Below, piece by piece: positions 4,110 to 58,410 of a DNA stretch of 64,000 nt. The notes beneath the pieces were generated by a model. The model searched no databases and was not told the DNA's origin. It saw only the letters and a list, made by a program, of their open reading frames with translations. The stretch spans positions 27,301-91,300 of the forward strand of contig CAZMZF010000008.1 of NCBI GenBank assembly GCA_964570765.1, read 5' to 3'. Both the position numbers and the translations under genes were made by a program. Every line of letters starts with the position of its first letter. Position 1 is the stretch's first letter. This DNA comes from an uncultured Ignavibacteria bacterium (lineage in GTDB: Bacteria > Zixibacteria > MSB-5A5 > RBG-16-43-9).

Positions 4110-4276
4110 GTAGGGGCGACCCGGCAGGTCGCCCCTACAGTTTCTTTTTTCTCATAGGCTGGGCTCCCAGCCCAGCAAAACGAGAATGTAGTTGCTCGAT
4201 TTATCGAGCATCTCGAAGCATCCGGCCATTATGTCAGATGTTTTTTACATAGGGCAGGAGTTCAACCCCTGCCCCG
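4110..4276. repeat. Cluster of 4 REP-like hairpins
   Basis: gtaggggcgacccggcaggtcgcccctac (4110-4138), taggctgggctcccagcccagc, gtagttgctcgatttatcgagca, tagggcaggagttcaacccctgccc. Confidence 0.8.
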
Positions 4277-4294
4277 CAAGTATTATTGTCTTTC

Positions 4295-4520
4295 TGTCCA
4301 AAACCTGAACAATAAATCTTTTTCGGCTAACCTCAAGTATGCAAAGTAGATTAGTTTAAAATCTATCCGGATTAAAAGATTTATCTGTTTAAAAAATGAA
4401 CATCTTTATAAGGTGGAAAATATTTCCCCAAAAATATTTTAAAAAGGCTCCTCGTAACTTCAAGTAAATAAAAGAGATAAGAATTATTTTTTATACTAAA
4501 ATTTATGGCATAGATATTGC
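4295..4520 (+). promoter_or_regulatory. Sigma54 promoter with two upstream enhancer-protein sites (PEP-CTERM gene 1)
   Basis: TGGCATAGATATTGC at 4506-4520 (-24/-12). TGTCCA-N5-TGAACA at 4295-4311 and TGTTTA-N5-TGAACA at 4386-4402. Confidence 0.75.
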
Positions 4521-4631
4521 TGAAATTCTATTTGTAAATTCTCATTTTTGTGAGCAGAGCTCTTTAATTTTAAGTAAGAAACAGAAAAAAAATGAACCAT
4601 TAACAATTTAAAATAATGAGGAGGTGAAAAA

Positions 4632-5234
4632 ATGAAAAAAGTAGTTATCCTGCTTTTCGTCTCAGCTATACTCTGGTTGTGTTCAGCTACAGCGGGATTG
4701 GCAGTGCCGATGACACTTTTCTTCGATAACCACGACCTGGACTTAGGTACTGCGAGCCAGATAAACTTGAATACCCAGTATCAGTCTGCTTACGGCATAT
4801 GGTTCCAGGAGGTCTACCGTTATATAGATGACCGTGACCCTTTTGTAGACCCCTACCCTGATACTTACGGGAATTTTGGAATCTCTAATGGATTCCTCCA
4901 GCAGAATGGTCTTGTCTCCACCCAGGGGAGAGTCAATTTTCTCTTCCCCACCCCTTATCTCCATTTCGACTGGTGGACAATTCCCGAAAATGCATTAACC
5001 ATCGAGGCATTTAACTCAGTCGGTATCTCCCAGGGTAGTTTATCTGCTTTGAGCGGTTCCGGCACGAATTCCTTAGTCGGCGATATTTCCTATGTTAAGT
5101 TCAACGACGCCGGTGGTTTTGTCCAACTCTCCAACATACGTTATGACTCACCTATCCCGGAGCCAGGTACTCTTTTGCTTTTAGGCACTGGTCTTCTGGG
5201 CTTGGGTGCTTTCAGGCTTAGAAGGAAAAAGTAA
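4632..5234 (+). CDS. PEP-CTERM sorting-domain surface protein
   Basis: Signal peptide; C-terminal PIPEPGTLLLLGTGLLGLGAFRLRRKK. Confidence 0.92.
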   Translation: MKKVVILLFVSAILWLCSATAGLAVPMTLFFDNHDLDLGTASQINLNTQYQSAYGIWFQEVYRYIDDRDPFVDPYPDTYGNFGISNGFLQQNGLVSTQGRVNFLFPTPYLHFDWWTIPENALTIEAFNSVGISQGSLSALSGSGTNSLVGDISYVKFNDAGGFVQLSNIRYDSPIPEPGTLLLLGTGLLGLGAFRLRRKK

Positions 5235-5255
5235 AAAAGAAAAATTAATGTTTTG

Positions 5256-5296
5256 AAATGCCCGATCCGCTTGAGGTGGATCGGGCGTTTTATTTT
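5256..5296 (+). terminator. Intrinsic terminator
   Basis: atgcccgatcc-gcttgaggt-ggatcgggcgt hairpin followed by a T-tract; near-identical copy at 6370. Confidence 0.7.
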
Positions 5297-5306
5297 GAGT
5301 TATTTC

Positions 5307-5352
5307 GTAGCGCGACCCTTTTCCTAATTATGGATCCGTAGGACAGGGTCGC
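5307..5352 (+). repeat. GTAG REP (gtagcgcgaccct family) with 20-bp GGATCC micro-insert
   Basis: gtagcgcgacccttt-[cctaattatggatccgtagg]-acagggtcgc. Second copy at 6452-6497; empty form gtagtgcgacccttttagggtcgc near 50069. Confidence 0.75.
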
Positions 5353-5458
5353 CTTAATAGTAATAATGTTTAGTGGTGTCTCTTGTTGATATACTTACCT
5401 TATCTTTTCTTCAAGCAGTTCTGCGTTAATCAGGAGTAAATTAGTATTATTGTCTTTC

Positions 5459-5683
5459 TGTCCAAAACCTGAACAAAAGACTTGTTTTTGCTAACCTCAA
5501 CAGTATAAATAGATTAATCCTGAATTTAGCATAATAAAACTACTTGTTTGTCCAAAGAATGAACAAGTTTTTAAGAAGTAAAATTACTCCATTAATAGAA
5601 TTTTCAAAGAATTTTTTTAACTTTAAGTAGTTAAAGGAGATAGAAATAAAAAATTTTATAAATATTTTTAGCACACATTTTGC
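5459..5683 (+). promoter_or_regulatory. Sigma54-like promoter with two enhancer sites (PEP-CTERM gene 2)
   Basis: TGTCCA-N5-TGAACA at 5459-5475 and 5549-5565. TAGCACACATTTTGC at 5669-5683 (one mismatch at the -24 GG). Same 120-bp offset from the proximal site as in unit 1. Confidence 0.65.
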
Positions 5684-5769
5684 TTGAATACTAAAAAGAC
5701 AGTCTTTATATATTGATTATATGAAGAAAACAAACAATTAACTTTTAAACTAAAGAAGGAGATGAAAAG

Positions 5770-6348
5770 ATGAAAAAGGTTATTTTGACTCTGGCGATAC
5801 TTGTGTTAGCGACTTCACCCAGTTGGGCTTTGGTTCTTCTGGATTTTGAGGGCATACCGGATGCATACTATTACTGGGGAGGGAACACAAACTTAGGTAG
5901 TTATTATTCTGGAGTGAATTTTGGGTTAGATGCGACTATTCTGGACAAGGTGATTTACGGATACAACGACGCAGATGGTCCTCCTCATTCCGGGAATGCT
6001 GTTCTATTCTCGAAAAGTGACCCGGTAATACGGATGAATTTCACCGGTGGATTTGTTAATTATGTTGAAACTTGGTATAGCAGTTATACTGATTTCTACA
6101 TGGAAGCATATAATTCATCTGACGTCTTGTTAACCAGCACCTCAGGGTCTGGCATTATCGGCAGCAATTCGCTACTTTCCCTTTCGAGCTCCAACTTTGA
6201 TATCGCTTATGTTTTATATCATGATTACGGCGATTATTATGTCCTGGATGACATAGCTTACAATCCAATCCCAGAGCCAGGTACTTTGATGCTTTTGGGG
6301 ACTGGTTTGTTGGGCTTGGGTGCTTTCAGGTTTAGAAGGAAAAAGTAA
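5770..6348 (+). CDS. PEP-CTERM sorting-domain surface protein
   Basis: Signal peptide; C-terminal PIPEPGTLMLLGTGLLGLGAFRFRRKK. Confidence 0.92.
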   Translation: MKKVILTLAILVLATSPSWALVLLDFEGIPDAYYYWGGNTNLGSYYSGVNFGLDATILDKVIYGYNDADGPPHSGNAVLFSKSDPVIRMNFTGGFVNYVETWYSSYTDFYMEAYNSSDVLLTSTSGSGIIGSNSLLSLSSSNFDIAYVLYHDYGDYYVLDDIAYNPIPEPGTLMLLGTGLLGLGAFRFRRKK

Positions 6349-6369
6349 AAAAGAATAGTTAATATTTTG

Positions 6370-6409
6370 AAATGCCCGATCCACTTGAGGTGAATCGGGC
6401 GTTTTATTT
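6370..6409 (+). terminator. Intrinsic terminator (duplicate of 5256)
   Basis: atgcccgatccacttgaggtgaatcgggcgtttt. Confidence 0.65.
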
Positions 6410-6630
6410 ACTTGAGGTTTTTCGTAAAACCCGTAGGACGTTTTTTCTTTCGTAGCGCGACCCTTTTCCTAATTATGGATCCGTAGGACAGGGTAGCTTT
6501 TCTTTTTTGTAAGAAATTTGCATTTTGGTTAGAAAATTCCTGTTTTAATTTTAAGATTTTTGTTGACTTAAGCCTCTTAATTTCCGTAATTAATATAGAA
6601 ATAGGGAATAACCTCAAAGAAAACATTAAA

Positions 6631-7179
6631 ATGAATTATTTTTTAACTGGATTGCCAGGGATTGGTAAAACTACTATAATTAAAAAGGTAATTGAGAAGA
6701 TGGATAAATCCACTTGCGGTTTCTTTACTACCGAGATTAGAGTTGGTGAGAACAGGGTGGGTTTTTCTGTTCAGACACTTTTCGGCATGGAGGGGGTTTT
6801 AGCCCACAAAGAATTCAAGAGTAAATACCGGGTGGGTAGCTATGGAATAGCGGTTACTGGTTTTGAGAAAATCGTCTCCCGGGAGTTAGAAAGGTGCTTA
6901 AGAGGACGTAGCATCATAATTATAGATGAGATCGGAAAGATGGAGCTTTTCTCCAGAAGGTTTCAAGAGCTGATTCTGGTTTGTCTGGATGCTTCTAATC
7001 CGGTGTTAGGGACGATTATGCATGGCTATCACCCATTCGTGGAGAAGGTGAAGAAACGAGAAGATGTAAAAATCTTCGAAGTGACCAAACAGAATAGAAA
7101 CCAGATGGTTAATATATTGATGGAGGAATTTAAGAAAGAAGATGAGAGCGAAAGCCCTAAAAAAGGAAAAGGCATCTAA
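6631..7179 (+). CDS. Nucleoside-triphosphatase, THEP1/NTPase_1 family
   Basis: Walker A TGLPGIGKTT, GFFTTEIR, Walker B IIIIDEIGKMEL. Confidence 0.9.
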   Translation: MNYFLTGLPGIGKTTIIKKVIEKMDKSTCGFFTTEIRVGENRVGFSVQTLFGMEGVLAHKEFKSKYRVGSYGIAVTGFEKIVSRELERCLRGRSIIIIDEIGKMELFSRRFQELILVCLDASNPVLGTIMHGYHPFVEKVKKREDVKIFEVTKQNRNQMVNILMEEFKKEDESESPKKGKGI

Positions 7180-7279
7180 CTATCTATAGCACTCTGAAGT
7201 GAAAATGAAAATTTGGGGCAGAATCTCGGAGAGGCGTGAGACCTATTCTTCAGAAATAATACATGCTTAAGAAGTTTGA

Positions 7280-7525
7280 ATTCAGAAGATTTATTATTCT
7301 TTTGACAGAGTTCTAAAGGATATAGGAACCAGGCAATTCGTTTATCTTTTTAGGGATGTGAATGCTGACGACATAAAAGATTTGCTGGATGTGGTTTTTT
7401 TGATTAACTACCTTTTTAAATCCGGGGATGCTCCCTGTCCTATGAGAAGGGGAAACCTGAATGCCGATGGGAAAATCTCTTTAGTAGATATACTTGTTTT
7501 AATCCATTCTCTTTATAAATCCTGA
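7280..7525 (+). pseudogene. Orphan degenerate dockerin remnant
   Basis: Hand translation after an in-frame TGA: ..RDVNADDIKDLLDVVFLINYLFKSGDAPCPMRRGNLNADGKISLVDILVLIHSLYKS*. No start codon in frame. Confidence 0.7.
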
Positions 7526-7533
7526 AATTAGAT

Positions 7534-7667
7534 GTAGGGGCGTATTGCAATACGCCCCTGATTTTCTCGTAACGCCCGACCTTAGTGTCGGGCGTTTATT
7601 TTACCCACATTGAGAGCAAGGTTGTTATACAAATATTTTGTAGAGGCACGTTGCAATGTGCCCCTAC
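7534..7667. repeat. Cluster of 3 REP-like hairpins
   Basis: gtaggggcgtattgcaatacgcccct, gtaacgcccgaccttagtgtcgggcg, gtagaggcacgttgcaatgtgcccctac. Confidence 0.8.
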
Positions 7668-7671
7668 CATT

Positions 7672-8673
7672 TTATGGTATTTCCAATACCCCAGCTCCGT
7701 TTATCTTTCCCTGCTTGAGTAAACGCAAAACTTGATTTGCTTCTTTTAAGGGGAAAACTGAGATCTGGGTGCGGATAGGGATTTCTTCAGCCAGTCCGAA
7801 CAACTTTTCACCATCTTTTCTGGTGCTGTTGGCCACACTTCTTAAGGTCTTCTCATAATAAAGATTTTCAGTATAATCAAATTGTGGGATAGAAGACATA
7901 TAGATTCCAGCCAAGGCAAGTGTTCCACCTTTGTTTAAAGCTTTTAAAGCCAGAGGGACCAGTTCTCCGGCGGGGGCAAAGATGATTGAGCTGTGAAGTT
8001 TTTTGGGGGGTGTCTGTTTTGCTTCCCCTGCCCAGACTGCTCCTAATTTTAAAGCTAATTTCTGATGTTCTGTGCTTCGAGTAAAGACATATACTTCACA
8101 ATTCCAGTAAATAGCTATTTGTATAGCAATATGAGCTGAGGCTCCAAAGCCATAAAGTCCCAATCTTTCTCCTGGTTTGATTTCGCTCAGTTTTAAAGCT
8201 CGATATCCGATTATTCCTGCACAGAGTAACGGAGCAGTCTCAGCGGGAGAGAGTTTATCTGGAACAGGGTAGGCGAAATCTTCCTGGATGACTGTATATT
8301 GGGCATAACCTCCATCTGAATGATAGCCGGTGAATTTTGCCTGTTCACACAGGTTTTCTTTTCCACTTTTGCAAAATTCACATTTTCCGCAGGTAGAATT
8401 TAACCAGGCTATACCAACTCTGTCTCCGATTTTGAATAGCTTTGTATCTTTTCCTTTTTTTTCTACTGTCCCAACAATCTGATGACCAGGTATTAGGGGT
8501 AACTTAGGCAAAGGAAGCTCACCTTCAACTGTGTGTAAATCTGTATGGCAGATGCCACAAACCTGAACGCGAACCAAAATCTCCTTTGGTCCGATTTCTG
8601 GTATCGGGATTTCCGTAAACTGAAGAGGATTTTCCTCGATTATACCGGGCTTTTTCAAAAGCATTGCCTGCAT
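7672..8673 (-). CDS. Zinc-dependent alcohol dehydrogenase family protein
   Basis: CGICHTD, GHQIVG, CGKCEFC..ENLC structural Zn motif, LCAGIIGYRAL, GLYGFGASAH. Confidence 0.92.
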   Translation of the reverse strand: MQAMLLKKPGIIEENPLQFTEIPIPEIGPKEILVRVQVCGICHTDLHTVEGELPLPKLPLIPGHQIVGTVEKKGKDTKLFKIGDRVGIAWLNSTCGKCEFCKSGKENLCEQAKFTGYHSDGGYAQYTVIQEDFAYPVPDKLSPAETAPLLCAGIIGYRALKLSEIKPGERLGLYGFGASAHIAIQIAIYWNCEVYVFTRSTEHQKLALKLGAVWAGEAKQTPPKKLHSSIIFAPAGELVPLALKALNKGGTLALAGIYMSSIPQFDYTENLYYEKTLRSVANSTRKDGEKLFGLAEEIPIRTQISVFPLKEANQVLRLLKQGKINGAGVLEIP

Positions 8674-8690
8674 AGGATTTCCTTCTGGTG

Positions 8691-9177
8691 GTAGAGACGC
8701 ATCGCTATGCGTCTCTACTGTTCTCCGTCGACAATCTATTTATTAAAATATTTCTGGCAAGATTAATTTTTGGGCTTTTTTATTTTTTTATCTTTTCCCG
8801 CGTCTGATCATCCCCCGTAGGGGGATGGCACCCTCTATATTTTGGCGACCCAAATGGGTCGCACTACAGTGCTGGGCTTGATAAATCAAGCCCCTACAAA
8901 ACTGTAGGGGTTCGATTTATCGAACCCAAATTGGTGAATGGACCTCACCCTTACCCTTTCCTAAGAGGAGAGGGGAATTTTTATGGCAAGTATTTTAGCG
9001 GGGCTGGGAGCCCCGCCTACGAGAAAGATGTATTATTACTTCACGTAGGCGGAGCACCCTGCTCCGCAAATTGGCTGTCAGAACAGGCAGGAATGCCTGT
9101 TCTACCGTTTTACTTCATCCCCAAACAAGTTTGGGGATGGCACCCTGATGCAGGGGCGTATAGCAATACGCCCCTAC
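8691..9177. repeat. Dense mosaic of about 11 different REP-like hairpins (BIME-like)
   Basis: Includes gtagagacgcatcgctatgcgtctctac, gcgacccaaatgggtcgcactac, gggcttgataaatcaagcccctac, gtaggggttcgatttatcgaacc, gcggggctgggagccccgcctac, gtaggcggagcaccctgctccgc, gaacaggcaggaatgcctgttctac, and two catcccc..ggggatggcaccc units. Confidence 0.85.
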
Positions 9178-9221
9178 TTTTTTTCTTGCCACCTCTTTTT
9201 TCTTCTAATATATTTGACAAT

Positions 9222-9713
9222 ATGAATAAAGCTGATAAAAATTCTGCCTCAGCTGAAGATGAGATTAAGAACATTGCCACTAATCGGAAAGCGCGGCATG
9301 AATATATTATCTTGGAGACCTATGAGGCGGGGTTGGTTCTGAAAGGGACTGAGGTGAAATCGCTGAGGGAGGGTAAGGCCAATCTCAAAGATTCTTATGC
9401 TAAAATAGATAAGGAAGAAGCAGTTCTCCTGAATATGCATATCAGTCCCTATGAGAAAGGGAACAGATATAATCAGGACCCAACCCGACCAAGAAAACTC
9501 CTGTTACACAAAAGCCAGATAAAAAGGTTATTAGGTAAGGTGGTTGAAAAAGGATTGACCTTAATCCCTCTCCGGCTCTATTTTAAGGGGAGTTATGCTA
9601 AAGTTGAACTGGCTGTAGCTGTGGGGAAGAAGCTTTACGATAAAAGAAAATCAATTACGAAAAGGGACGTAGAACGTGCTTTAAGAAGAGCTCTAAAGGA
9701 AAGAAATAAATGA
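9222..9713 (+). CDS. smpB: SsrA-binding protein SmpB
   Basis: [41 protein letters not shown]. Start moved from 8931 to ATG 9222 because the extension is repeat DNA. Confidence 0.95.
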
Positions 9714-12042: not shown

Positions 12043-12046
12043 AAAA

Positions 12047-12136
12047 ACGTGACCGTTATACGTGAGCGTTATTCGTGGTAACATTTAATCGGTCATTGCG
12101 AGGGGTTGTAGGGGCGACCCGGCGGGTCGCCCCTAC
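12047..12136. repeat. Degenerate heptamer array plus perfect GTAG REP
   Basis: cgtgaccgttatacgtgagcgttattcgtg, then gtaggggcgacccggcgggtcgcccctac (12108-12136). Confidence 0.75.
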
Positions 12137-12791: not shown

Positions 12792-12964
12792 CGGATAAAA
12801 AATTCGCGTAGGGGTGGAGCTTGTCTCCACCCGAACCCACTTTTTTTGATTGACTAAAGGTTAAAAAAGGGTATATTTATAGAATGAGGGGATCCGCCAG
12901 AGGCGGATTAAATTAAGTATCCGAGGGAAAAAGTCGATTTTCTTAATAAAAAAAGGAGAAGATT

Positions 12965-15820: not shown

Positions 15821-15837
15821 GATAAATTTCTTGCTCT

Positions 15838-16022
15838 GTAGGGGCTGGGTTTCCCAGCCCAAAAATTAGGACGAGGAGACCTCGCTCCTACAACAAATAT
15901 CAGTATACCCACGTTGCCCCCAACGTGGGTATAATCTCTCCCGCCTTGAGATTTGTAGAGACGCATGGCAATGCGTCTCTACGTATTTGAATTTTACTAA
16001 CGGGAGAAGTTCTCAGCCCGTT
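15838..16022. repeat. Cluster of about 5 REP-like hairpins
   Basis: gtaggggctgggtttcccagccc, gaggagacctcgctcctac, atacccacgttgccccaacgtgggtat, gtagagacgcatggcaatgcgtctctac. Confidence 0.8.
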
Positions 16023-17944: not shown

Positions 17945-18152
17945 GTAGAGACGCATTGCATGCGTCTATATCTTTTGTAGCGTCGGGCTTTATGCCCGAC
18001 ATTTAATTCTTACATTGGGACAGGCTCCCGCATTCTGCGAGGCAAGCAGGGTCGTACTACGAAATAAAATGGTTCGGGAAATCCAATTCCCGAACCAACA
18101 AAAAAAGGGCGTGCTACGAATCTGAAACAGACAGGAATGTCTGTTTTACCGC
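17945..18152. repeat. Cluster of REP-like hairpins, one with a 22-bp insert
   Basis: gtagagacgcattgcatgcgtc, gtagcgtcgggctttatgcccgac, [tcccgcattctgcgaggcaagc]agggtcgtactac, ggttcgggaaatccaattcccgaacc, aacagacaggaatgtctgttttac. Confidence 0.75.
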
Positions 18153-35134: not shown

Positions 35135-35335
35135 TTTTGACTCCTTTGTTTAGTTTTTGATAGTTTTTGTTCCTCTTCTCTATCTAAAATAATAGGGTTT
35201 TTGGCAGGATTTGTCAAGAAAAAAAGACAAAAACTTTAGATTAAAAATAAAATTTATGAATAGGGAGTTAAAGAAGTTGTAGATCAGGAGCACAGGGCTC
35301 CTGACCTACTATTATGGACTAATCACTGTATTAAG

Positions 35336-35411
35336 GGTGGGTGACGGGATTTGAACCCGCGACCCTCAGGGCCACAACCTGATGCTCTAACCAGGCTGAG
35401 CTACACCCACC
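35336..35411 (-). tRNA. tRNA-His(GTG)
   Basis: Cloverleaf with G-1/C73; anticodon arm TCAGG-TT-GTG-GC-CCTGA; GGTTCAAATCC; CCA not encoded. Confidence 0.95.
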
Positions 35412-35491
35412 GTATTGGTTAATGGTTCATAGTTAAAAAAGTAAAATCATTTTACCATTAACCAACCACCATGAACTACCCACTGCTTTTA

Positions 35492-35565
35492 TACCCCCGG
35501 CCCGATTCGAACGGGCGACCCTCTGCTTAGAAGGCAGATGCTCTATCCACCTGAGCTACGGGGGC
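35492..35565 (-). tRNA. tRNA-Arg(TCT)
   Basis: Anticodon arm TCTGC-CT-TCT-AA-GCAGA; T-loop GTTCGAAT. Confidence 0.95.
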
Positions 35566-35641
35566 AAATTTAGTGATGAGTGGTCAGTGATCAGTTATTA
35601 TTTTCTAACCACTATAAACTGATTACTGATCACTGTTTTTC

Positions 35642-35715
35642 TCGGGGTGGGGGGATTTGAACCTCCGACAGCATGGTCCCAAACCATGTGCGCTACCAGG
35701 CTGCGCTACACCCCG
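35642..35715 (-). tRNA. tRNA-Pro(TGG)
   Basis: CGGGGTG/CACCCCG acceptor stem; anticodon arm CATGG-TT-TGG-GA-CCATG. Confidence 0.95.
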
Positions 35716-35795
35716 TTACCTTTCGATTCTAAAACCATAAACAGTAAATAATACTACTTTAGATAATGTTTTTTCTCCAATCTAATACGTGAATT

Positions 35796-35823
35796 AATAT
35801 AAGGATGAACACTTTATTGTCAA
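35796..35823 (-). promoter_or_regulatory. Sigma70-type promoter of the tRNA operon
   Basis: TTGACA-N16-TATATT on the minus strand. Confidence 0.65.
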
Positions 35824-35998
35824 GCAAACTTTTTGTCTCTGAAATTAAAGAGAGTGGTCGGGCAAGGGTGCCCGACCTACGATGATTCTTAAATAATACT
35901 TCGTAGGCGGGGCTCCCAGCCCCGCAAAATCAGTTTTTCAGAAATTTCTTTATTATTTTTTATAGAGACGCATTGCTTTGCGTTTCTACAGACAAAAT

Positions 35999-36028
35999 AA
36001 AAAACCCCGCCTCTAAAAAGGCGGGGTT
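35999..36028 (-). terminator. Intrinsic terminator downstream of the csp gene
   Basis: aaccccgcc/ggcggggtt stem followed by a T-tract on the minus strand. Confidence 0.7.
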
Positions 36029-36113
36029 ATAATGTGGTTAAATCTTCCCTATGGGGAGCTAAGCCTCCGCCGTCAGGCGGGCGTAGCCCATAGGATCGAA
36101 AAGCTTTTATCGA

Positions 36114-36320
36114 CTATTCTAATTTAACTACATTAATTGCCTGCGGTCCTTTAGGACCCTCGGTGATATCGAAGCTAACCTCGTCTCCCTGTTTCAGGGA
36201 CTTATATCCCTCTGACTTTATCGCTGAATAATGAACAAAGACGTCCTTCCCCCCTTCCTTGAGCTCTATAAATCCAAATCCCTTAGCCTCGTTGAACCAC
36301 TTCACTTTCCCTTCTGCCAA
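36114..36320 (-). CDS. Cold-shock protein
   Basis: [24 protein letters not shown]; likely TTG start at 36320. Confidence 0.95.
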
Positions 36321-36468
36321 AATCTTATTCACCACCTTTCATCTGGCCTAACGTTAAAACAAAAAAACCACGAAAGATATCACAAAACTAAAAACTCTCA
36401 TGGTCAATTAAAATCTTTTAAAGCATTCTAAAATCAACTAACTCTTTCCTTCAAATCTTTACAACAAT

Positions 36469-36497
36469 ACTATACGTAAAAAAATCGATTTTGTCAA
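36469..36497 (-). promoter_or_regulatory. Sigma70-type promoter of csp (implies a ~140-nt 5' UTR)
   Basis: TTGACA-N17-TATAGT on the minus strand. Confidence 0.65.
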
Positions 36498-36789
36498 GCA
36501 AAAATCTCAAAAGAGAACATTTCATTATTTTTTATCGGATGAATTACAGGAAGTTTTAATATTTTACCTTTGTTATTTAAAGAAAATGAAGATTCTTCAT
36601 CCCATCTTTTTCGGGTCCCAGGATCACGGTTTTCAGGACAAGTTTTCAACCTTGAGATAATCTCATTCGGTAGGGGGGTCTATATCCCTAACATTAAAAA
36701 TGGCAAACAATTGAATGTTTCTAAATGCTCATCCATCTTGACAAATTAAAAGAAGTTTATTTATTGTTTTATTGAAAACGGAGGGAAAG

Positions 36790-38799: not shown

Positions 38800-39086
38800 G
38801 TAGAGACGCATCGAATGCGTCTCTATAATGGACAGAACGATGTTCTGTCCCTACGGATGAATAAACCCACCTTTGGGGGCAAGGCGGGTTTACCGGATTA
38901 TCAATTTCGTAGCGCGAACCTGCTTGTGTCCCGCCAAAGGCGGGATCAGGTTCGCTTTTTGAGTGATGGATGGAGGGCTAATCCGCCTCTGGCGGACAAG
39001 ACCTTGTCCGAATTTGGATCCATAGGAATGGCCTTCCTCTACATTTTTTGTAGGGGCGTATTGCAATACGCCCCTCCTATTTTCTC
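38800..39086. repeat. Dense REP mosaic with several micro-inserts
   Basis: gtagagacgcatcgaatgcgtctcta, gacagaacgatgttctgtccctac, gtagcgcgaacct-[24 bp]-tcaggttcgc, a REP carrying both tccgcctctggcggacaa and gtccgaatttggatccatagga, gtaggggcgtattgcaatacgcccct. Confidence 0.8.
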
Positions 39087-41346: not shown

Positions 41347-41446
41347 GTTGAACAAAGGACAGGCAAGATGCTTGTCCCACGATTTTCAAAATAATATTGG
41401 AAATCTAAAGATTTCCGCTACATAAATATTCAAAAAGGTGGTTAAA

Positions 41447-42298: not shown

Positions 42299-42354
42299 AA
42301 GAAGGGAAAAAATGTAGCGTCGGGTTTTATGCCCGACGAAAATATGTAGAACTT

Positions 42355-43018: not shown

Positions 43019-43322
43019 TCCGCCAGAGGCGGACAAGAGTTCAAGGGGAAAAAGGAAGTAGGTAGGCGCAAGCTTCAGCTTGCGGATGGATTACATTGTA
43101 ACGCAGACATAAAGTCTGCGGCTACCAAGGATAAACGATGATTCGTGTTAAGTTTTGTAGGTCAAGCATGTCTGTAGGACTGCTTGACAAATGAATGGTT
43201 ATGTAGCGGAAAGCTCTCGTGGGTGTCCGCCTGAGGCGGACCAGCCCCGTAATAGTGGTTTTTCAGAGCTCTCTGTAAAATGTCAACCACCCTGTTTTTG
43301 GCGGGGATGGTTAACCTGCAAA
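43003..43322. repeat. Octamer array plus REP mosaic with micro-inserts
   Basis: aggttcaa-aggtttaa-[tccgccagaggcggacaa]-gagttcaa; gtaggcgcaagcttcagcttgcg; gtaacgcagacataaagtctgcg; gtaggtcaagcatgtctgtaggactgcttgac. Confidence 0.8.
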
Positions 43323-44880: not shown

Positions 44881-45178
44881 GTAGTTCAAGTAGGTCCACA
44901 GAACTTGACAAAAAAGCTGTAGGGCATGGCTTTAGCCATGCGAAAATGAAGCAACCCTGTCCGAATTTGGATCCTTTGGAAAGGGTTGCCCTACGAAAAA
45001 TTTGATGTGGCGGAAAGTTATCAAGCTCTTGAGACTATAACCCTTAATTTTTTGGAAACCCGAAGGTTTCCGCTACATAATAATTTACTTCAATGTTCAA
45101 GTTTATTAAACATTCCTGTCTGACCACAAGGAACAGACAAGTCTTGTAGGTTAAGCATGTCCATTGGACTGCTTGACT
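44881..45178. repeat. REP mosaic
   Basis: gtagggcatggctttagccatgc; gcaaccct-[gtccgaatttggatcctttgga]-aagggttgccctac; gaaacccgaaggtttccgctac; gtaggttaagcatgtccattggactgcttgac. Confidence 0.8.
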
Positions 45179-45190
45179 AAAAAATGTCCT

Positions 45191-45883
45191 ATGAAAGAAG
45201 GGATTAAAAAAATCTTTTCTGAGGTTCCGCAGACTTATGAACTGGTTAATCATATTTTAACCTTCGGGATGGATATCTTCTGGCGAAAAAAGGCGGCAAA
45301 GATAGCAGTCGCAGGAGGTGGGGAGATGTGGATGGATATTTGTAGTGGAACAGGGGAGATGGCGTCCTATCTTAGCAGGCTTGCTCCAGAAAAAACCAGG
45401 GTGTTCGCTATAGATTTCAGCTTTCCAATGATTCGAAAAGCCCTGGAGAAAAAAGAGGCTTCTGAAATCACTTTCATACTCTCCGATATAAATACCCTCC
45501 CTTTTCCGGATAATACATTTGACCTTATAACCATATCATTTGCGGTCCGCAATATAAATCTCAATCGTGAGAAGTTTCTTGTATCTCTCAAAGAGATTCA
45601 CAGGGTTTTAAAATCAGGTGGGCGATTTGTGAGTGTGGAGACCAGTCAGCCAAAATCTAAGTTTATCCGGATGTTGTTTCATTTCTATATTCGGCTGGCA
45701 GTTAAGCCAATTGGACAGATTATCTCAGGCTCAAAATCTGCTTATACCTATCTTTCCCAGACCATCCCTCAATTCTATTCAGCAGATGAATTTGCTGAGA
45801 TTATAAGAGAAGCTGGTTTTTCAGAGGTTACCTTCAAACGGATGTTTTTGGGAGCGAGTGCCATTCATAAAGCGATTAAGTAG
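45191..45883 (+). CDS. UbiE/MenG-family quinone biosynthesis methyltransferase
   Basis: IFSEV..YELVNHILTFGMDIFWRK, DICSGTG, RVLKSGG, AYTYLSQTIPQF. Start moved out of the upstream repeat. Confidence 0.85.
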   Translation: MKEGIKKIFSEVPQTYELVNHILTFGMDIFWRKKAAKIAVAGGGEMWMDICSGTGEMASYLSRLAPEKTRVFAIDFSFPMIRKALEKKEASEITFILSDINTLPFPDNTFDLITISFAVRNINLNREKFLVSLKEIHRVLKSGGRFVSVETSQPKSKFIRMLFHFYIRLAVKPIGQIISGSKSAYTYLSQTIPQFYSADEFAEIIREAGFSEVTFKRMFLGASAIHKAIK

Positions 45884-45979
45884 CGTCGGGCTTTATGCCC
45901 GACGATAGTAGGTCAGACATTCCTGCCTGACAAAAGGGAACAGACAGAATGTCTGTTCTACCATTTTAAATAACAACTA

Positions 45980-46730: not shown

Positions 46731-46945
46731 TGGTAAGTCAGACATTCTGGTACTGTTGCTCAACTCCTGGATATAGCATATGGAGTCAGGAGTCGTTAAT
46801 GTAGGGACAGCCCTAGTTGAGCTTTGCGAAATCCAGTTTTGCAGGATGGCTGTCCTCATTGGGGTTAGGACAGGGACAAGCCCTGTCCCTACATAAGATT
46901 TCTCCCAAAAAAGACTTCGGGAACAGCCCCAGGATGTCTGTTCTA
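46731..46945. repeat. REP doublet (REPIN-like) and further hairpins
   Basis: gtagggacagccct..ggctgtcct.. paired with gacagggacaagccctgtccctac; gaacag..ctgttcta. Confidence 0.7.
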
Positions 46946-49952: not shown

Positions 49953-50190
49953 TTCAAGGCATTCTAAGGGGAAAGTTAAACTCCACTTCTTTATGTAATT
50001 TACTTCCAGTAAAATTTAAGAAAGGGAAATCTGTTTAGCAAGTTAATTGATAAGGAGCTTTGATTTTCGTAGTGCGACCCTTTTAGGGTCGCTTGTTTTT
50101 CCTCGTAACGTCCGACACAAGAGTCGGGCGTTACGAATTTTCTTGTTTTTACTCTTGAACTTTTGAACCCTTGAACCTTTGAACCTTTCT

Positions 50191-53287: not shown

Positions 53288-53594
53288 TATCGCTCCTCCT
53301 CTCTTTATACCGGTATTTAGAATAGCTTGCTTATATCCAGATACTCAGTCTTTTGATCTTTTTAAATGATTCTTCCTTTCAAGTCTTGACATTTCTTGTT
53401 TTCTAAAAACTTTTTTACTAACTCAATAATAAGAAAGTATCCCTTCTTTTCTGAGTTTATCGAATTCTTTCTTAAAGAATATTATCTCAAGTTCTTTTTG
53501 TCAAGCAGTTTTATGGATATACTTGACCTACAAAATTGCTTGTGGCATTGTCACGATAAGAATTCTGTAGGGGCAATTCATGAATTGCCCCTAC

Positions 53595-54470
53595 CTATTT
53601 TATATATTCTAATCCCTTTTCAATGTCCAAAAGCTCGGTTGTAAGGAGTTTTTTGGCTTTATCGATTTTTAGTCCGCCCTCACGGGGGCGAGGGGCTTTC
53701 TGTTTTAACTTAGAGGTTTTAGCAGGTGAAATCAGATTTTGGTCAAAATTAAATTTTCTGGCTACTTTCAAAGCGAAATCGTAACGGGAAAGGTATTCGC
53801 TCCCGGCAATGTTTAAAATCCCGGAGAGACCTTTTTCTATTGCTTCCTTTATGGCACTGGCTAAGTTGTCTGCCAGGGTGGGGTTATTATACTGGTCGGT
53901 AACTATCTTAACTTTTTCTTTATTTGAGAGTTTCTGGATTAGCCATAAGACGAAATTTGGTCTTAAATTTTCACCTTTTCCATAAAGTACATTAGTGCGA
54001 ACGATTAAGAAATCTATCTTCCTTTCGAAAATTTCCTTCTCGCTTTCTAATTTGGTGAGTCCATAATAACCAACTGGATTTGGGGTATCATCCTCTGAAT
54101 AAGGGCCTTTTTTCCCATCGAAGATATAATCAGTGGATAGGTGAACCAGTTTAACTTTTATCTTCTTACATAAATCTACGAGAATTTTCACCCCATCTAC
54201 ATTCGCTGACCAGGCTAACTCTTTATTTTCTTCACAGCCATCCACATCCGTGTAAGCGGCTGTATTTATCACTACTTCAGGTTTAAAAGAAGAGAAAAGT
54301 TCTTTTAGTTTTTCTACTTGAAGGATACTTAAAGTCTTATAAGTAAAATTTTCTTCTGGAATGAAAGACTCAATCTGGAGATCGATTCCTGTGGTCTGAT
54401 GATCAGGAGAGAATATTTTAACCAGTTTCTGCCCTAAAAGTCCATTCGAGCCGGTGATTAAAACCCTCAT
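53595..54470 (-). CDS. rmlD: dTDP-4-dehydrorhamnose reductase
   Basis: ITGSNGLLG, NTAAYTDVD, STDYIFDG, YGLTK. Confidence 0.93.
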   Translation of the reverse strand: MRVLITGSNGLLGQKLVKIFSPDHQTTGIDLQIESFIPEENFTYKTLSILQVEKLKELFSSFKPEVVINTAAYTDVDGCEENKELAWSANVDGVKILVDLCKKIKVKLVHLSTDYIFDGKKGPYSEDDTPNPVGYYGLTKLESEKEIFERKIDFLIVRTNVLYGKGENLRPNFVLWLIQKLSNKEKVKIVTDQYNNPTLADNLASAIKEAIEKGLSGILNIAGSEYLSRYDFALKVARKFNFDQNLISPAKTSKLKQKAPRPREGGLKIDKAKKLLTTELLDIEKGLEYIK

Positions 54471-55504
54471 ACCCTTTCTCTTTTTCCGAATGGATCCATT
54501 CTGGATAGATAATGTTTCTCATAATATTTAAGATATTCCTCGCTTTTTATCTTTTCCCACCAGTTTCTATTGTTAATATACCACTCTACATTTTTTTTAA
54601 GTCCTTGCTCCAACTTTACTTTCAGCTTAAACCCTAACTCTTTTTTGCTTTTAGAGGAATTTAGAGCATACCTTCGGTCATGAGCTGGTCGGTCTTTGAC
54701 ATATTTTATTAAACTCTGGGGTTTATTCAGATATTCAAGGATAAGATTTGTTATCTCCAAGTTGGTTTTTTCCGCACCCCCACCGAGATTATAGATCTCA
54801 CCCTCTTTACCTTTATGCAGGACTAAATCAATACCTCTACAGTTATCCTCCACGTAAATCCAATCCCGGATATAAAGGCCGTCACCGTAAATCGGGAGTT
54901 CTTTATCCTCTAAGGCGTTGGTGATAAACAAGGGGATCAACTTTTCCGGGAACTGGTAAGGCCCATAATTATTAGATGAGCGGGTAATCAAAGCAGGTAG
55001 GTTGAAAGTTTTAAAATAGGACCGGACTAAAAGGTCTGCACCGGCTTTACTGGCTGAATAGGGGCTATTGGGCAAAAGCTGGCTTTCTTCAGTAAAGAAT
55101 TTTCCCTTCTCTATACTTCCATATACTTCATCTGTGGAGATCTGAATAAATCTTTTGAGCTTAAACTTTAAAGCTGATTCTAATAAAACCTGAGTGCCTA
55201 AAATATTAGATTGGACAAAGCTTTTGGGCTCATACAGGCTACGGTCAACATGAGTTTCTGCGGCGAAATTTACGATTACGTCTATATTCTGAGAAACGAG
55301 TTCTTCCACCAGTTTCTGGTCGCAGATATCACCTTTGATGAATTTATAATTAGGGGAAGAGTCTATATCAGAAAGGTTATCTAAATTACCAGCATAGGTA
55401 AGCTTATCTAAGTTTACGATTTGATATTGAGGATAATTCTTTAGAATATAATGGATGAAGTTGGAGCCGATAAAGCCCGCCCCCCCGGTGACTAAAATAT
55501 TCAT
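54467..55504 (-). CDS. rmlB: dTDP-glucose 4,6-dehydratase
   Basis: TGGAGFIGS, DKLTYAGN, AAETHVD, STDEVYG, YSASK, DRPAHDRRY. Confidence 0.96.
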   Translation of the reverse strand: MNILVTGGAGFIGSNFIHYILKNYPQYQIVNLDKLTYAGNLDNLSDIDSSPNYKFIKGDICDQKLVEELVSQNIDVIVNFAAETHVDRSLYEPKSFVQSNILGTQVLLESALKFKLKRFIQISTDEVYGSIEKGKFFTEESQLLPNSPYSASKAGADLLVRSYFKTFNLPALITRSSNNYGPYQFPEKLIPLFITNALEDKELPIYGDGLYIRDWIYVEDNCRGIDLVLHKGKEGEIYNLGGGAEKTNLEITNLILEYLNKPQSLIKYVKDRPAHDRRYALNSSKSKKELGFKLKVKLEQGLKKNVEWYINNRNWWEKIKSEEYLKYYEKHYLSRMDPFGKRERV

Positions 55505-55521
55505 TGAATCACTTTCAAAAA

Positions 55522-57063
55522 TTAATATGAATTTGTTTCAAATATTGTAAAATTTTTCACTTTTTTTATATATCTCTGAGCTCTTTTAAAGGAATCCAGT
55601 TTTAAGGGAAGTCTTGGTTTTTTACCTTCAAAAATTTCCTTCAGTGTTAAAATTTGAATCTTCGGATACTTTTCACCAGGGGGAGATTTATAATAACCTT
55701 TTAAGAAAGCCTCTTTTTTCATTGCAGAAGGAGGGGTCTCCAACGATATAAATATCCCGATGTTAGCTTTTTCTCCGTCTATAACGTGGCATAAATCCCT
55801 TATGCCTTTAACAGAAATTTTACCACTCTTAACTTGAACTATCGCGCTTTTAATTTTGTCTTTTTCATCCATAAAATATATATATCCATCAATGCCTGTA
55901 TCAGCCCCTCTTTTTTTATCACCAAAAGGTCTTGCATCTATAAGAGATAGAACCCACCACTGGAACTGATATCTATTCTGAAAAGCTAATTCTTTAGCGC
56001 CTTCAAGGTCAGCAGGCTCACCAATTACTTTATAGTGAATTTTCGGCTCTAATCTGAATTGATGTTTTAACCTCCACTTGATTAGATTTATTGCTAAATG
56101 AGTTATATCTATACCAATCCATTTGCGTTTAAATTTATGAGATACTGCTATAGTTGTTCCACAACCGCAGAAAGGGTCTAAGACAACATCATCCTCTTTT
56201 GAAGAAGCAAGGATAATCCTTTCTAAAATAGCTTCTGGTTTTTGAGTAGGATATCCTAATCTTTCTTTAGCAGCCCTATTAATCACTGGAATAGGCCACC
56301 AGTCCCTTGGTGGAACACCCGGCGATTTATCAAGATAGTCTCTATAAACCCAGTCTTGATGTGTTTCCTCAAGGGAAATATCAAGTCCTTGTTCACCTAC
56401 GTAAGGTCCTCCTTTTCCTCTTATTTGGAACTTTCTTCCAGCTTCATCTACATAGTTAAACTTTTTAAATGTTCCTTCACTATAAGGGATTGCAACCTCT
56501 TTCCAATTAAAAGTATGCTTATCGTTACTCTTTTTTGTATAGAAGAATATAACATCATGCTTTTTATTCCAATTTTTTTTGGAAATTTCTCTCTCTGAAT
56601 AACACCAGATAATCTCATTTCTAAAGTTTTCCTTCCCAAATACCGTGTCCATCAAAATTTTCAGGTAATGGCTAGCAGTTGGATCGCAATGGAGATAAAT
56701 AGAGCCAGTATCTTTAAGTATTCTTCTCAGCTCGAATAATCTTATACACATCATGGTCAGATATGCCATCACATCATTAATACCTATAAAATCCCTGAAA
56801 GCAATCATCATTTTAACTGCTTTTGCAGGTGCTTTTTCGACTATCTCTTGAAAAATTCTCTCTGTTTCTTCGGTCCAATGCCAAGTATCTTCAAAGGCTG
56901 TTATTTGAGCAGTTAAAGGTTTATCCGTTGGCTCTTTGAAAAGGATATTATAAGTTGCTTTAGAATTAAATGGAGGGTCTAAATAGATTAAATCAATAGA
57001 GTTATCTAAAACGTATCTTCTAAGTACTTTTAAATTGTCACCATAATAAAGAGTGTTTTCCAT
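55522..57063 (-). CDS. Amino-methyltransferase (N6/N4 DNA MTase) fused to a C-terminal PD-(D/E)xK-like nuclease domain
   Basis: LIYLDPPF, YPTQKP, LDPFCGCGTT; C-terminal GIDG..VQVKSG. Confidence 0.85.
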   Translation of the reverse strand: MENTLYYGDNLKVLRRYVLDNSIDLIYLDPPFNSKATYNILFKEPTDKPLTAQITAFEDTWHWTEETERIFQEIVEKAPAKAVKMMIAFRDFIGINDVMAYLTMMCIRLFELRRILKDTGSIYLHCDPTASHYLKILMDTVFGKENFRNEIIWCYSEREISKKNWNKKHDVIFFYTKKSNDKHTFNWKEVAIPYSEGTFKKFNYVDEAGRKFQIRGKGGPYVGEQGLDISLEETHQDWVYRDYLDKSPGVPPRDWWPIPVINRAAKERLGYPTQKPEAILERIILASSKEDDVVLDPFCGCGTTIAVSHKFKRKWIGIDITHLAINLIKWRLKHQFRLEPKIHYKVIGEPADLEGAKELAFQNRYQFQWWVLSLIDARPFGDKKRGADTGIDGYIYFMDEKDKIKSAIVQVKSGKISVKGIRDLCHVIDGEKANIGIFISLETPPSAMKKEAFLKGYYKSPPGEKYPKIQILTLKEIFEGKKPRLPLKLDSFKRAQRYIKKVKNFTIFETNSY

Positions 57064-57094
57064 ATAATAGTTCCTTCAGTTCCTAAAAGCTTCA

Positions 57095-57550
57095 TCATCC
57101 ATCCTTTCTTTCCCATTTATAGGGGACCTCATCCGTATGAGGAGGGATGCGATATTCGTCCGGCTGAAGATAATTATAAGCTTCAGTTGGGCAGTTGATG
57201 CAGATCGCCTCTTCAGGACTTATACACTTGAACCCGTGTAATACCAGAGGTGGTATCTGAATTAAGAGCGGGTTGTCCTCTCCGAGGAAAAATTCATTGA
57301 TCTCCCCTTTGGTAGGGGAATCATCCCGACTATCATATAAGACTAACTTAATCATCCCCTTTATCACGATGAAGTTGTCGATCTGCTTCTTATGGAAATG
57401 CCAGCCTTTTACCACTCCGGGATAGGCAGTGGTCATATATACCTGCCCGAACTGTATGAAAAGCTCTTCATCCGACCTTAAAAGCTCCATCAGTTTTCCC
57501 CTCTCATCCGGGATGATTTTAAGTTTTTTCTGCCTTACTCCCTGAATCAT
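57095..57550 (-). CDS. rmlC: dTDP-4-dehydrorhamnose 3,5-epimerase family protein
   Basis: DERG, GVVKGWHFH, IPPLVLHGF. Confidence 0.88.
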   Translation of the reverse strand: MIQGVRQKKLKIIPDERGKLMELLRSDEELFIQFGQVYMTTAYPGVVKGWHFHKKQIDNFIVIKGMIKLVLYDSRDDSPTKGEINEFFLGEDNPLLIQIPPLVLHGFKCISPEEAICINCPTEAYNYLQPDEYRIPPHTDEVPYKWERKDG

Positions 57551-57559
57551 CTTTAAACC

Positions 57560-58297
57560 CTAAAAATACTTTTTGTTCGCCCCTTTTTGAGCTACGATTT
57601 TATTAGCTTTTAATAGAGCATCGATTGATTCCCCAGCATCGAGCCAGTAACCTTTTAGAAAGGAATAGGTAAGGTTTCCCTGTTTGAGATAAGCATTGTT
57701 CACATCAGTTATCTCTAATTCCCCTCGACCTGAAGGTTTTAAAGATCGAACTATCTCAAATACCTGGTTATCATACAGATAGATGCCAATCACCGCATAG
57801 TTACTTTTAGGTCTTTTTGGCTTTTCCTCTATTTTTATAATCTTACCATTCTTGATCTGAGCGATACCGTACTCTTTAGGATTATCGACTTCTTTTAAAA
57901 GGATTTTAGCTCCACTTCTCTGGGATTTAAAATCCTCTACAGCTTTCTGGATATTCCCCTCGATTATGTTATCTCCTAACATAATCAAGACTTTCTCCCC
58001 TTCGGCAAAATGCTCAGCTAAACCGACTGCCTCTGCTATTCCACCTTCTTTTTCCTGATAGGTGTAATTTAAGTGTTTAAGCCCAAAACCTTTACCGTTC
58101 CCTAAGAGACGCAAAAAATCTCCAGCATTATTACCGCCGGTAACTATCAAAATATTCCTTATTCCTGCATTGATCAGAGTCTGAACAGGATGGAAAATCA
58201 TAGGACGGTCATAGACCGGGAGTAAATGTTTATTGGTGATCTTGGTTAATGGATAAAGTCTGGTCCCCAACCCGCCTGCTAAGATGATTCCCTTCAT
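57560..58297 (-). CDS. rmlA: Glucose-1-phosphate thymidylyltransferase (short form)
   Basis: Start corrected to MKGIILAGGLGTRL after AAGGAG; KHLLPVYD, EKP, GELEITD. Confidence 0.9.
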   Translation of the reverse strand: MKGIILAGGLGTRLYPLTKITNKHLLPVYDRPMIFHPVQTLINAGIRNILIVTGGNNAGDFLRLLGNGKGFGLKHLNYTYQEKEGGIAEAVGLAEHFAEGEKVLIMLGDNIIEGNIQKAVEDFKSQRSGAKILLKEVDNPKEYGIAQIKNGKIIKIEEKPKRPKSNYAVIGIYLYDNQVFEIVRSLKPSGRGELEITDVNNAYLKQGNLTYSFLKGYWLDAGESIDALLKANKIVAQKGANKKYF

Positions 58298-58317
58298 TAT
58301 TACTCCTTCTTCACATT

Positions 58318-58410
58318 TGTCATTCTGACCCCCACCGTTGGCGGGGGAAGAATCGACATCCGCCTGAAGCGGATTCGGTCGCCCCCATAAGGAACTCCCC
58401 CAGAATGACA
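58318..58410. repeat. ~93-bp element with TGTCATTCTG / CAGAATGACA terminal inverted repeats and internal hairpins
   Basis: tgtcattctga-cccccaccgttggcggggga-agaatc..atccgcctgaagcggat..cagaatgaca. Confidence 0.7.

Follow-up and report, generated by a model that had tools for sequence, protein, structure and literature searches.

The intergenic gaps of a 64,000-nt stretch of DNA from an uncultured Zixibacteria bacterium (C8:27301-91300 of genome G000, hereafter the window, within which unit coordinates are counted) contain hairpins that are preceded by the tag GTAG and differ in their stems from one unit to the next, which raises the question of what these hairpins are and how so many stem families came to reside in one genome. 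The genome is a 2.75 Mb assembly with 40% GC (93 contigs, 98% complete), and it was compared with the whole closed genome of a congener, the sister species G088. We consider it likely, with a probability of about 0.8, that the hairpins are GTAG-tagged repetitive extragenic palindromes (REPs), non-autonomous hairpin elements of single-stranded DNA (ssDNA), and that they belong to many co-resident systems of REPs and REP-associated tyrosine transposases (RAYTs), or REPtrons. The kind of system is known; the phylum is newly found to harbor it, and the multiplicity is exceptional, about three times the published maximum of RAYTs per genome.

Tagged hairpins in the genome and the window

Hairpins were scanned as perfect stems of at least 7 bp with loops of 3-8 nt (first count) or 3-9 nt (count of GC-rich cores), and a hairpin was regarded as tagged when an exact GTAG was located just 5' of the stem or CTAC just 3' of it. 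Intergenic DNA was found to contain 965 GC-rich perfect hairpins, 497 of which are tagged, while 20 dinucleotide-preserving shuffles gave 25.8 and 0.8, respectively. Over the whole genome, the tagged share is 606 of 1406 GC-rich hairpins. No other tetramer stands upstream of GC-rich hairpins as often as GTAG (24% of sides); composition-matched permuted tetramers reach 1-5.5%, a range that omits TAGG (15%), a tetramer overlapping the tag. GTAG occupies 457 of 865 hairpin sides in the 30 commonest families, about one per hairpin, and the commonest variants one base off are ATAG (30), GTAA (29), GCAG (12) and GTGG (11), the last three of which had already been named in an earlier reading made from the letters of the window alone (the sequence-only reading). 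The diversity of GTAG-tagged hairpins described there is confirmed.

The first count gave 89 perfect hairpins in the window. Fifty-two window hairpins have a GC-rich core, 31 with exact GTAG/CTAC and nine with a tag bearing one mismatch (e.g., ATAG, GTAA, GCAG, GTGG); when AT-richer cores are included, the window holds 40 tag-oriented records with 26 distinct 8-mer arms. The GTAG-tagged units are thus real, whereas the statement of the sequence-only reading that nearly every intergenic gap has hairpins was too strong, as units occur in 15 of the 34 window gaps of at least 40 nt and in 407 of 1405 genome-wide (29%). The mosaic at 8691-9177, for which about 11 kinds had been counted by eye, comprises 10 hairpin units of nine kinds plus one hairpin built from two abutting tags, in agreement with that count. 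Three public Logan contigs (loci L159-L161), identical to the window, all stop at 8903, the junction of two tag-to-tag REPs, which indicates that mosaics break short-read assemblies. No Rfam family covers the GTAG hairpins in an Rfam search, in which four tRNA genes were the only matches in the window.

Stem diversity

About 760 tagged sites, equal to 850 tag-oriented records (728 of them intergenic), are present in the genome and amount to 19 kb or 0.7% of its length. When stem types were defined as distinct arm 8-mers, these records fell into 251 types with an inverse Simpson index of 48: seven types have at least 20 copies, 21 at least 10 and 42 at least five, while 159 have exactly one. 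The stems therefore do not collapse into one to three families. Types were then linked if they differed by one step, i.e., one arm position changed together with a compensating change in the other arm, which gave 192 links against 30 +/- 5 in column-shuffled controls and a largest component of 46 types against six. Many families are therefore diverged relatives, so that, from the earlier description of about 20 families with unrelated stems, the large number of types stands but the unrelatedness does not. A GGG foot (the 3 bp beside the tag) is common to 248 units with 48 different upper stems. Of the units with an exact 5' arm, 70% have a perfect stem, and loops are very variable in places, with 23 different loops among 74 copies of AGACGCAT.

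Clustering at two arm mismatches was rejected as uninformative: it joined 751 units into one component, near the expectation for random 8-mers, so only the one-step network with its null model was used. The REPIN doublet, an inverted pair of the same REP with a short spacer, was rejected as the main unit. Only 56 tags-out pairs exist (112 of 850 records), the paired arms usually differ (e.g., GGGTGGAG with GGGCGGAG), and most units are singlets or double-foot palindromes (GTAG...CTAC); double-tagged sites in G088 number 71 of 561.

RAYT genes and their flanking hairpins

Pfam Y1_Tnp (PF01797) has nine matches in the genome, and a profile built from the genome's own Y1 proteins revealed 12 RAYT-like loci, of which nine look intact, one has a variant HUH motif (R9) and two are pseudogenes (R8p with a stop codon, R12p with a frameshift). 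Neither search found a locus on the contig of the window; all 12 are on other contigs, in line with the earlier remark that the window has no RAYT gene. When five proteins were tested against NCBIfam, the REP-associated tyrosine transposase model NF047646 scored R1, R3, R4 and R6 above its cut-off and R9 below it, and the IS200 model NF033573 scored far below the RAYT model in four of the five. An identity as IS200/IS605 insertion sequences was ruled out by these scores and by the lack of near-identical copies among the 12 loci. The best solved relative of a profile of 10 paralogues is the E. coli TnpArep (PDB 4ER8, 4e-21). Among ten paralogues, the first HUH histidine (H67) and the tyrosine (Y129) are invariant and the second histidine (H69) is present in nine; in R9 (C14:23855-24457) the motif reads NHFQ, the second histidine being replaced by glutamine (HFQ), while the gene is otherwise intact and REP-flanked, so that the catalysis of R9 may be altered. 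The paralogues share 24-44% identity with R1, and 47% was the highest value among the pairs tested (the G088 orthologue of R2 against R4). In the tree, deep long branches separate the paralogues and orthologue pairs of G000 and G088 stand at the tips.

Comparison of these genes with their flanking REPs, which the sequence-only reading had proposed as a check, revealed that in at least nine loci (R1-R5, R7, R8p, R9 and R11) the gene stands between the members of a GTAG-hairpin ... hairpin-CTAC pair of its own type. In the flank check, R1, R2, R4, R5, R6 and R9 have hairpins on both sides, R3, R7, R8p and R11 on at least one side, and R10 has no flanking hairpin; the pair of R6 carries a GTGA tag. 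The flanking arms are GGGTGGAG / GGGCGGAG for R1, CGGAGGTC / CGGAAGGC for R2, AACAGACA / GTCAGACA for R3, CGCGAGGC / CGCGACCC for R4, GGGAGGGG / GGGAGTCC for R8p and GTAG-GGGCAGAC / GTAG-GGGCGAAC for R9, and RAYT-flanking arm types recur 3-24 times elsewhere in the genome. The TAG in the tag of the downstream REP doubles as stop codon of R1, R2 and R4. The frame of R7 (C13:29077-29832, minus strand) holds in-frame REP hairpins of its own type, AACACGGGCA-aga-TGCCCGTGTT and CACAGGCA-aga-TGCCTGTG-CTAC, which translate to NTGKMPVLP repeats between the HUH and Tyr motifs.

R9-R12p share the motifs IMPNH(F/I)HGI, WQR and YI(Q/I)(T/N)(N/K)P and an insert of 20-30 residues between HUH and Y. Judged by motifs and REP feet, they appear to belong to TnpA-REP subclass 2.4 / RAYT group 4 (PMC6006769).

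Inheritance and turnover

G088 has 13 RAYT-like loci, and its orthologues of R1, R2, R3, R6 and R7 occupy syntenic positions, keep the same flanking stems and show 70-92% identity. Five Zixibacteria of other families have 10-13 RAYT loci each, 141 of 151 Zixibacteria genomes are PF01797-positive, and many loci fetched from other Zixibacteria are flanked by their own hairpins. Across the phylum, tag class (GTAG, GGTGC, GTGCGC), foot and stem track the RAYT clade; clades with GGTGC-type feet occur in other Zixibacteria and not in G000. The genome therefore has the features by which REP/RAYT systems are recognized: a Y1 HUH enzyme, inverted flanking hairpins, GT(A/G)G at the 5' side, dispersed extragenic copies and diverged, vertically inherited RAYTs.

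The repeats of G088 comprise 632 tagged records of 245 arm types, and 110 types are common with G000 in similar rank order. Single sites are less stable: among 480 G000 sites with both flanks syntenic in G088 (88% identity), 90 carry the same type, 150 carry other units and 240 are empty. For the mosaic 8691-9177, the first and last units are kept in G088 and all between differ; mixed clusters of this kind are hotspots turning over between species, perhaps because further units can insert at any GTAG/CTAC already resident. Insertions or deletions of whole units were seen, several directly beside a resident GTAG/CTAC (e.g., 38830-38854), in a sample too small to fix the target. A strict empty-site search based on high-scoring segment pairs gave three cases only, and global gap alignment gave 46 insertions or deletions, many of which are duplicates or loop insertions of other mini-elements and not whole REPs. 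Two kinds of such mini-elements were noticed in one species but not at the corresponding site of the other, frequently placed precisely within a REP hairpin loop: a 21-22 nt mini-palindrome (consensus approximately TCCTAnnAACGGATCCGTAGGA, with CTAC and GTAG within the arms; e.g., G000 C34 near 6632 and several G088 sites) and elements of 38-62 nt.

Stem families without a flanked RAYT

RAYT paralogues account for only part of the stem diversity. Five large families have no flanked RAYT in G000 or G088, namely AGACGCAT (a double-foot palindrome, 78 records), GGACAGAA (43), GGGCACGG (27), GGGCGTAT (26) and GGGCGACC (26), and the sole AGACGCAT-like RAYT flank is one imperfect, untagged hairpin downstream of locus L019 of G088. 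RAYTs flanked by GGGCGTAT (G045, G005), the GGACAG-type GGACAGGG (G100) and GGGCGAGG (G084) occur in other Zixibacteria, so several orphans probably arose when their cognate enzyme was lost. Position conservation is likewise highest in AGACGCAT and GGACAGAA (47% and 43% of sites, for AGACGCAT 16 of 34 in G088). Some orphans with uniform loops have expanded in G000 after its split from G088 (GGGCACGG 27 vs. 4, GGGCGACC 26 vs. 2, GTCGGGCA 13 vs. 1). Such species-specific expansion points to mobilization in trans, in agreement with the E. coli enzyme, which in vitro recognizes GTAG together with the lower stem, independently of the upper stem-loop, and tolerates upper-stem changes (PMC8266576).

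Proposed mechanism and alternative explanations

The genome encodes 12 diverged RAYT paralogues (TnpA-REP, Y1 HUH) of several subclasses, each enclosed by its own hairpins as an inverted pair. On the model of E. coli TnpA-REP, a RAYT would bind the folded hairpin with its GTAG foot on ssDNA and cut beside it; throughout this work, we infer activity of the RAYTs on the hairpins from homology to 4ER8 and from PMC8266576. In this explanation, stem diversity has three layers. The first is an ancient, phylum-wide radiation of RAYTs in which each paralogue kept a characteristic tag, foot and stem and was inherited vertically. The second is diversification of stems in situ by compensated changes, mostly above the 3-bp foot, as seen in the one-step network, with the variants probably still being copied. 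The third would consist of orphan families with old, partly position-conserved copies whose cognate RAYT was apparently lost here but is alive in other Zixibacteria; some of these orphans may still expand, presumably moved in trans by paralogues for which tag, foot and hairpin shape matter and the sequence of the upper stem does not.

Several observations weigh against this explanation. Only 137 records (16%) equal a RAYT-flanking arm, 31% lie within one step of one and 49% share its 3-bp foot, and the largest family, AGACGCAT, has no flanked RAYT in G000, G088 and five other genomes sampled. R9 has the HFQ motif, and R8p and R12p are pseudogenes. The assembly is fragmented, so a RAYT may be missing from it. 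About 60 tagged sides are expected by chance genome-wide from the permuted-tetramer control, so part of the tail of 159 singleton types is noise. Finally, no replication-strand bias of tag orientation was found in G088 (200-kb bins), where the GC-skew profile is irregular, and an IS608-like lagging-strand mechanism might predict such a bias. The GC skew of G088 has one sharp switch near 1.9 Mb and one diffuse switch between 0.35 and 1.0 Mb; its replichores are therefore unequal, or the genome is rearranged.

A further reading is a tentative idea that we regard as somewhat improbable: specificity would reside only in the tag plus the 3-bp foot (GTAG-GGG, GTAG-CGN, GTAG-AAC/GTC, GGTGC-CCC, GTGCGC-GGC), read by a long-lived community of 10-13 RAYTs. 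If so, the upper stem would drift freely by compensated changes and one paralogue could propagate dozens of stem families; orphans would be cross-mobilized after loss of their own RAYT, each inserted GTAG would become a landing site from which mosaics are built, and the phylum would offer a natural covariation data set for the RAYT-REP recognition code.

The sequence-only reading had left the choice between many RAYT paralogues and a promiscuous enzyme that reads only the tag and a hairpin. The former is borne out by the 12 loci, their own hairpin pairs and stems that follow the clade, and the latter is favored in part only, by the low shares of exact (16%) and one-step (31%) matches and by the recent expansion of families that flank no RAYT. 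In its full form, with one or very few promiscuous RAYTs that read GTAG plus any GC-rich hairpin and move all families while the other paralogues are irrelevant or otherwise employed, the latter seems unlikely to us. It would explain why the same tag is common to all families, why 69% of units have no RAYT-flanking arm within one step and why uniform-loop orphans such as GGGCACGG and GGGCGACC are expanded in G000 only, and it fits the upper-stem tolerance of the E. coli enzyme in vitro. However, each RAYT is bracketed by its own stem pair, orthologues of 70-92% identity keep their stems, and stem, foot and even tag class track the RAYT clade across the phylum; moreover, 10-13 diverged paralogues are kept in six genomes, which argues against redundancy.

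Gene context bears on whether the hairpins might be host-selected RNA or DNA signals (mRNA stabilizers at 3' ends, terminators or protein-binding sites) that are no longer mobile and whose link to RAYTs is historical. Convergent gaps are densest in units (2.6 per kb of gap), followed by tandem (1.6) and divergent gaps (1.2), and in tandem gaps the tag is on the sense strand at 232 of 366 single-tag sites (P-value = 3e-7). These features speak for such signals, as do the stems of AGACGCAT, perfect despite variable loops and kept at 16 of 34 sites in G088. Nevertheless, half of the syntenic sites are empty in G088 and another 31% hold a different family, lineage-specific bursts have occurred, and in several families the hairpin base is followed on the tag strand by A-runs and not by the T-run of an intrinsic terminator. 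Exaptation of some copies would leave the spread unexplained, and we consider this alternative very improbable. Twenty-seven tags genome-wide supply the stop codon of the upstream gene; this and the gap preferences given above are in line with previous surveys of REPs (PMC3733652).

The idea that GC-rich palindromes of an AT-rich genome stand beside GTAG by accident may apply to some of the singleton types, permuted tetramers reaching 1-5% of sides, but as a general explanation it is refuted by the shuffles (0.8 tagged hairpins vs. 497) together with the permuted-tetramer control and by families of up to 78 copies common to another species.

Comparison with known systems

The norm of one to a few families per genome, assumed in the sequence-only reading, agrees with the literature: Pseudomonas and Stenotrophomonas strains have two to three RAYTs on average and at most four (Nunvar 2013, PMC3686654), RAYT copies per replicon number 1.3-1.8 per group (Bertels 2017, PMC5581495), and nine REPIN-RAYT systems were reported across a whole species (RAREFAN preprint, 10.1101/2022.05.22.493013). 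No literature linking Zixibacteria and REPs was found.

Like the E. coli REPs and bacterial interspersed mosaic elements (BIMEs) with their TnpA-REP (PMC2817692, PMC3479197, PMC8266576), the G000 system has a homologous Y1 HUH enzyme, a gene between inverted REPs, GTAG at the hairpin foot and extragenic, high-copy units clustered in mosaics, with a tag that sometimes is a stop codon. However, E. coli has one RAYT, few REP types and bulged stems, whereas G000 has 12 loci and dozens of perfect stems of 7-12 bp, and its mosaics mix many families instead of two alternating types. The REPIN-RAYT systems of Stenotrophomonas and fluorescent Pseudomonas (PMC3686654, 10.1101/2022.05.22.493013, PMC3116915) are alike in that each of their several diverged RAYTs per genome has a cognate REP class; they also show vertical inheritance, REP classes persisting after loss of their RAYT and "orthoswitch" of flanking REPs. 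They differ in RAYT number (two to three per strain, maximum four, against 12-13 per 2.7 Mb genome and several subclasses here), in copy number (hundreds per family against at most 78) and in the REPIN doublet, as G000 has mostly singlets and double-foot palindromes.

GGG-foot and double-foot REPs and REPs within RAYT genes have already been described for subclass 2.4 / RAYT group 4 (Quentin et al., 2018, PMC6006769). R9-R12p resemble this subclass in their NH(I/F)H, WQ and YIxNNP-type motifs, the variable insert between HUH and Y and REPs that start with GTAG-GGG; double-foot palindromes are common in G000, and R7 has in-frame REPs in its own gene. Most descriptions of subclass 2.4 concern Cyanobacteria and Bacteroidetes, with genomes carrying about 1.5 copies, whereas here four to six members of the clade stand beside other subclasses, and R7, the carrier of the intragenic REPs, sits in another clade. 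The GTAG REP superfamily (Di Nocera et al., 2013, PMC3733652) shares with G000 the GTAG tag and its one-base variants, stems of 6-13 bp, sub-families with alternative complementary residues, units located preferentially in gaps downstream of genes, some copies within genes and stop codons formed by tags. However, that survey, which did not include Zixibacteria, described 24 families over more than 80 species, while 21 types with at least 10 copies and 42 with at least five are found in G000 alone. The IS200/IS605 family (IS608, ISDra2) similarly uses a Y1 HUH enzyme on ssDNA hairpins and a tetranucleotide 5' of the foot as a guide, but G000 has no identical multi-copy transposase genes and no TnpB, it is the hairpins and not the gene that are repeated, and no strand bias relative to replication was seen in G088.

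Nearly all knowledge of REP/RAYT biology comes from Proteobacteria that carry one to four systems in a genome. What is new here is that 12 diverged RAYTs, together with dozens of short perfect GTAG-tagged stems, are found in one small genome, and that such multiplicity is the rule in its phylum. The co-variation of tag, foot and stem with RAYT clade over large distances amounts to a natural experiment on how an ssDNA HUH enzyme chooses its hairpin. Regarding the persistence of non-autonomous elements, families are common to both species though most sites differ, and families outlive their enzyme. Because the repeats break assemblies, mimic terminators and supply stop codons, annotation of Zixibacteria metagenome-assembled genomes should consider them.

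Hairpin units and other features of the window

Table 1. GTAG-tagged hairpin units, other hairpins and tRNA genes of the window (positions within the window).
Position	Strand	Feature	Remark
4110..4138	.	double-foot REP GTAGGGGCGACC-cggca-GGTCGCCCCTAC	GGGCGACC family (26 genome copies)
4188..4210	+	REP GTAG-t-TGCTCGA hairpin	TTGCTCGA family
7534..7559	+	REP GTAG-GGGCGTAT hairpin	orphan family, 26 copies
8691..8718	.	double-foot REP GTAGAGACGCAT-cgct-ATGCGTCTCTAC	largest family (78 records); kept at same place in G088
8809..8834	-	non-GTAG hairpin CATCCCCC-gta-GGGGGATG + GGCACCC tail	GGTGCC-type foot on minus strand; second copy 9116-9146
8845..8867	-	REP GCGACCC hairpin, then aCTAC	TGCGACCC family
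8874..8897	-	REP GGGCTTGA hairpin + CTAC	
8904..8927	+	REP GTAG + GGGTTCGA hairpin	tag-to-tag with unit 8874..8897
8998..9020	-	REP GCGGGGCT hairpin + CTAC	
9045..9067	+	REP GTAG + GCGGAGCA hairpin	
9080..9105	-	REP AACAGGCA hairpin + CTAC	type flanking R7
9116..9146	-	second non-GTAG hairpin CATCCCCAAA-caag-TTTGGGGATG + GGCACCC tail	
9150..9177	-	REP GGGCGTAT hairpin + CTAC	GCAG variant tag on opposite side; mosaic end
12108..12136	.	double-foot REP GTAGGGGCGACCC-ggc-GGGTCGCCCCTAC	
12808..12832	+	REP GTAG + GGGTGGAG hairpin	type flanking R1 on contig C36
15838..15860	+	REP GTAG + GGGCTGGG hairpin	
15955..15982	.	double-foot REP, loop ggca	AGACGCAT family
17945..17969	+	REP GTAG + AGACGCAT hairpin	loop tgc
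17977..18000	+	REP GTAG-c-GTCGGGC hairpin	CGTCGGGC family
35279..35309	.	double-tagged REP GTAG-a-TCAGGAGC ... GCTCCTGA-c-CTAC	
35336-35715 and 61564-61635	-	four tRNA genes	Rfam
35854..35880	-	REP GTCGGGCA hairpin + CTAC	13 copies in G000, 1 in G088
35903..35925	+	REP GTAG + GCGGGGCT hairpin	
38800..38826	+	REP GTAG + AGACGCAT hairpin	kept in G088
38830..38854	-	REP GGACAGAAC hairpin + CTAC	missing from orthologous G088 site; abuts CTA of neighboring unit
39050..39077	+	REP GTAG + GGGCGTAT hairpin	
41399..41421	-	REP GGAAATC hairpin + gCTAC	CGGAAATC, related to R2-flanking type
42314..42338	+	REP GTAG + CGTCGGG hairpin	
43062..43084	+	REP GTAG-g-CGCAAGC hairpin	
43098..43125	-	REP CGCAGAC hairpin + gCTAC	tags-out pair with unit 43062..43084
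44919..44941	+	REP GTAG-g-GCATGGC hairpin	
45054..45076	-	REP GGAAACC hairpin + gCTAC	CGGAAACC family
45880..45904	+	REP GTAG + CGTCGGGC hairpin	TAG of tag is stop codon of open reading frame 45164-45883
45938..45961	-	REP GAACAGACA hairpin + TAC	type flanking R3
46865..46892	-	REP GGACAGGG hairpin + CTAC	type flanks RAYT in G100, none in G000
50069..50092	+	REP GTAG-t-GCGACCCT hairpin	TGCGACCC family, one step from R4-flanking CGCGACCC
53567..53594	.	double-foot REP GTAGGGGCAATT-catg-AATTGCCCCTAC	

Three of the four tRNA genes are clustered within the long REP-bearing gap 35135-36771. Hairpin repeat families without GTAG were also detected, including CATCCCC... hairpins followed by GGCACCC, GGTAA-tagged CCCACCTTG/CCCGCCTTG hairpins (28 genome-wide), TCCCGCC-nnn-GGCGGGA mini hairpins (27 genome-wide) and, at window positions 18070 and 51855, TTCCCG hairpins with a conserved atccaa loop.

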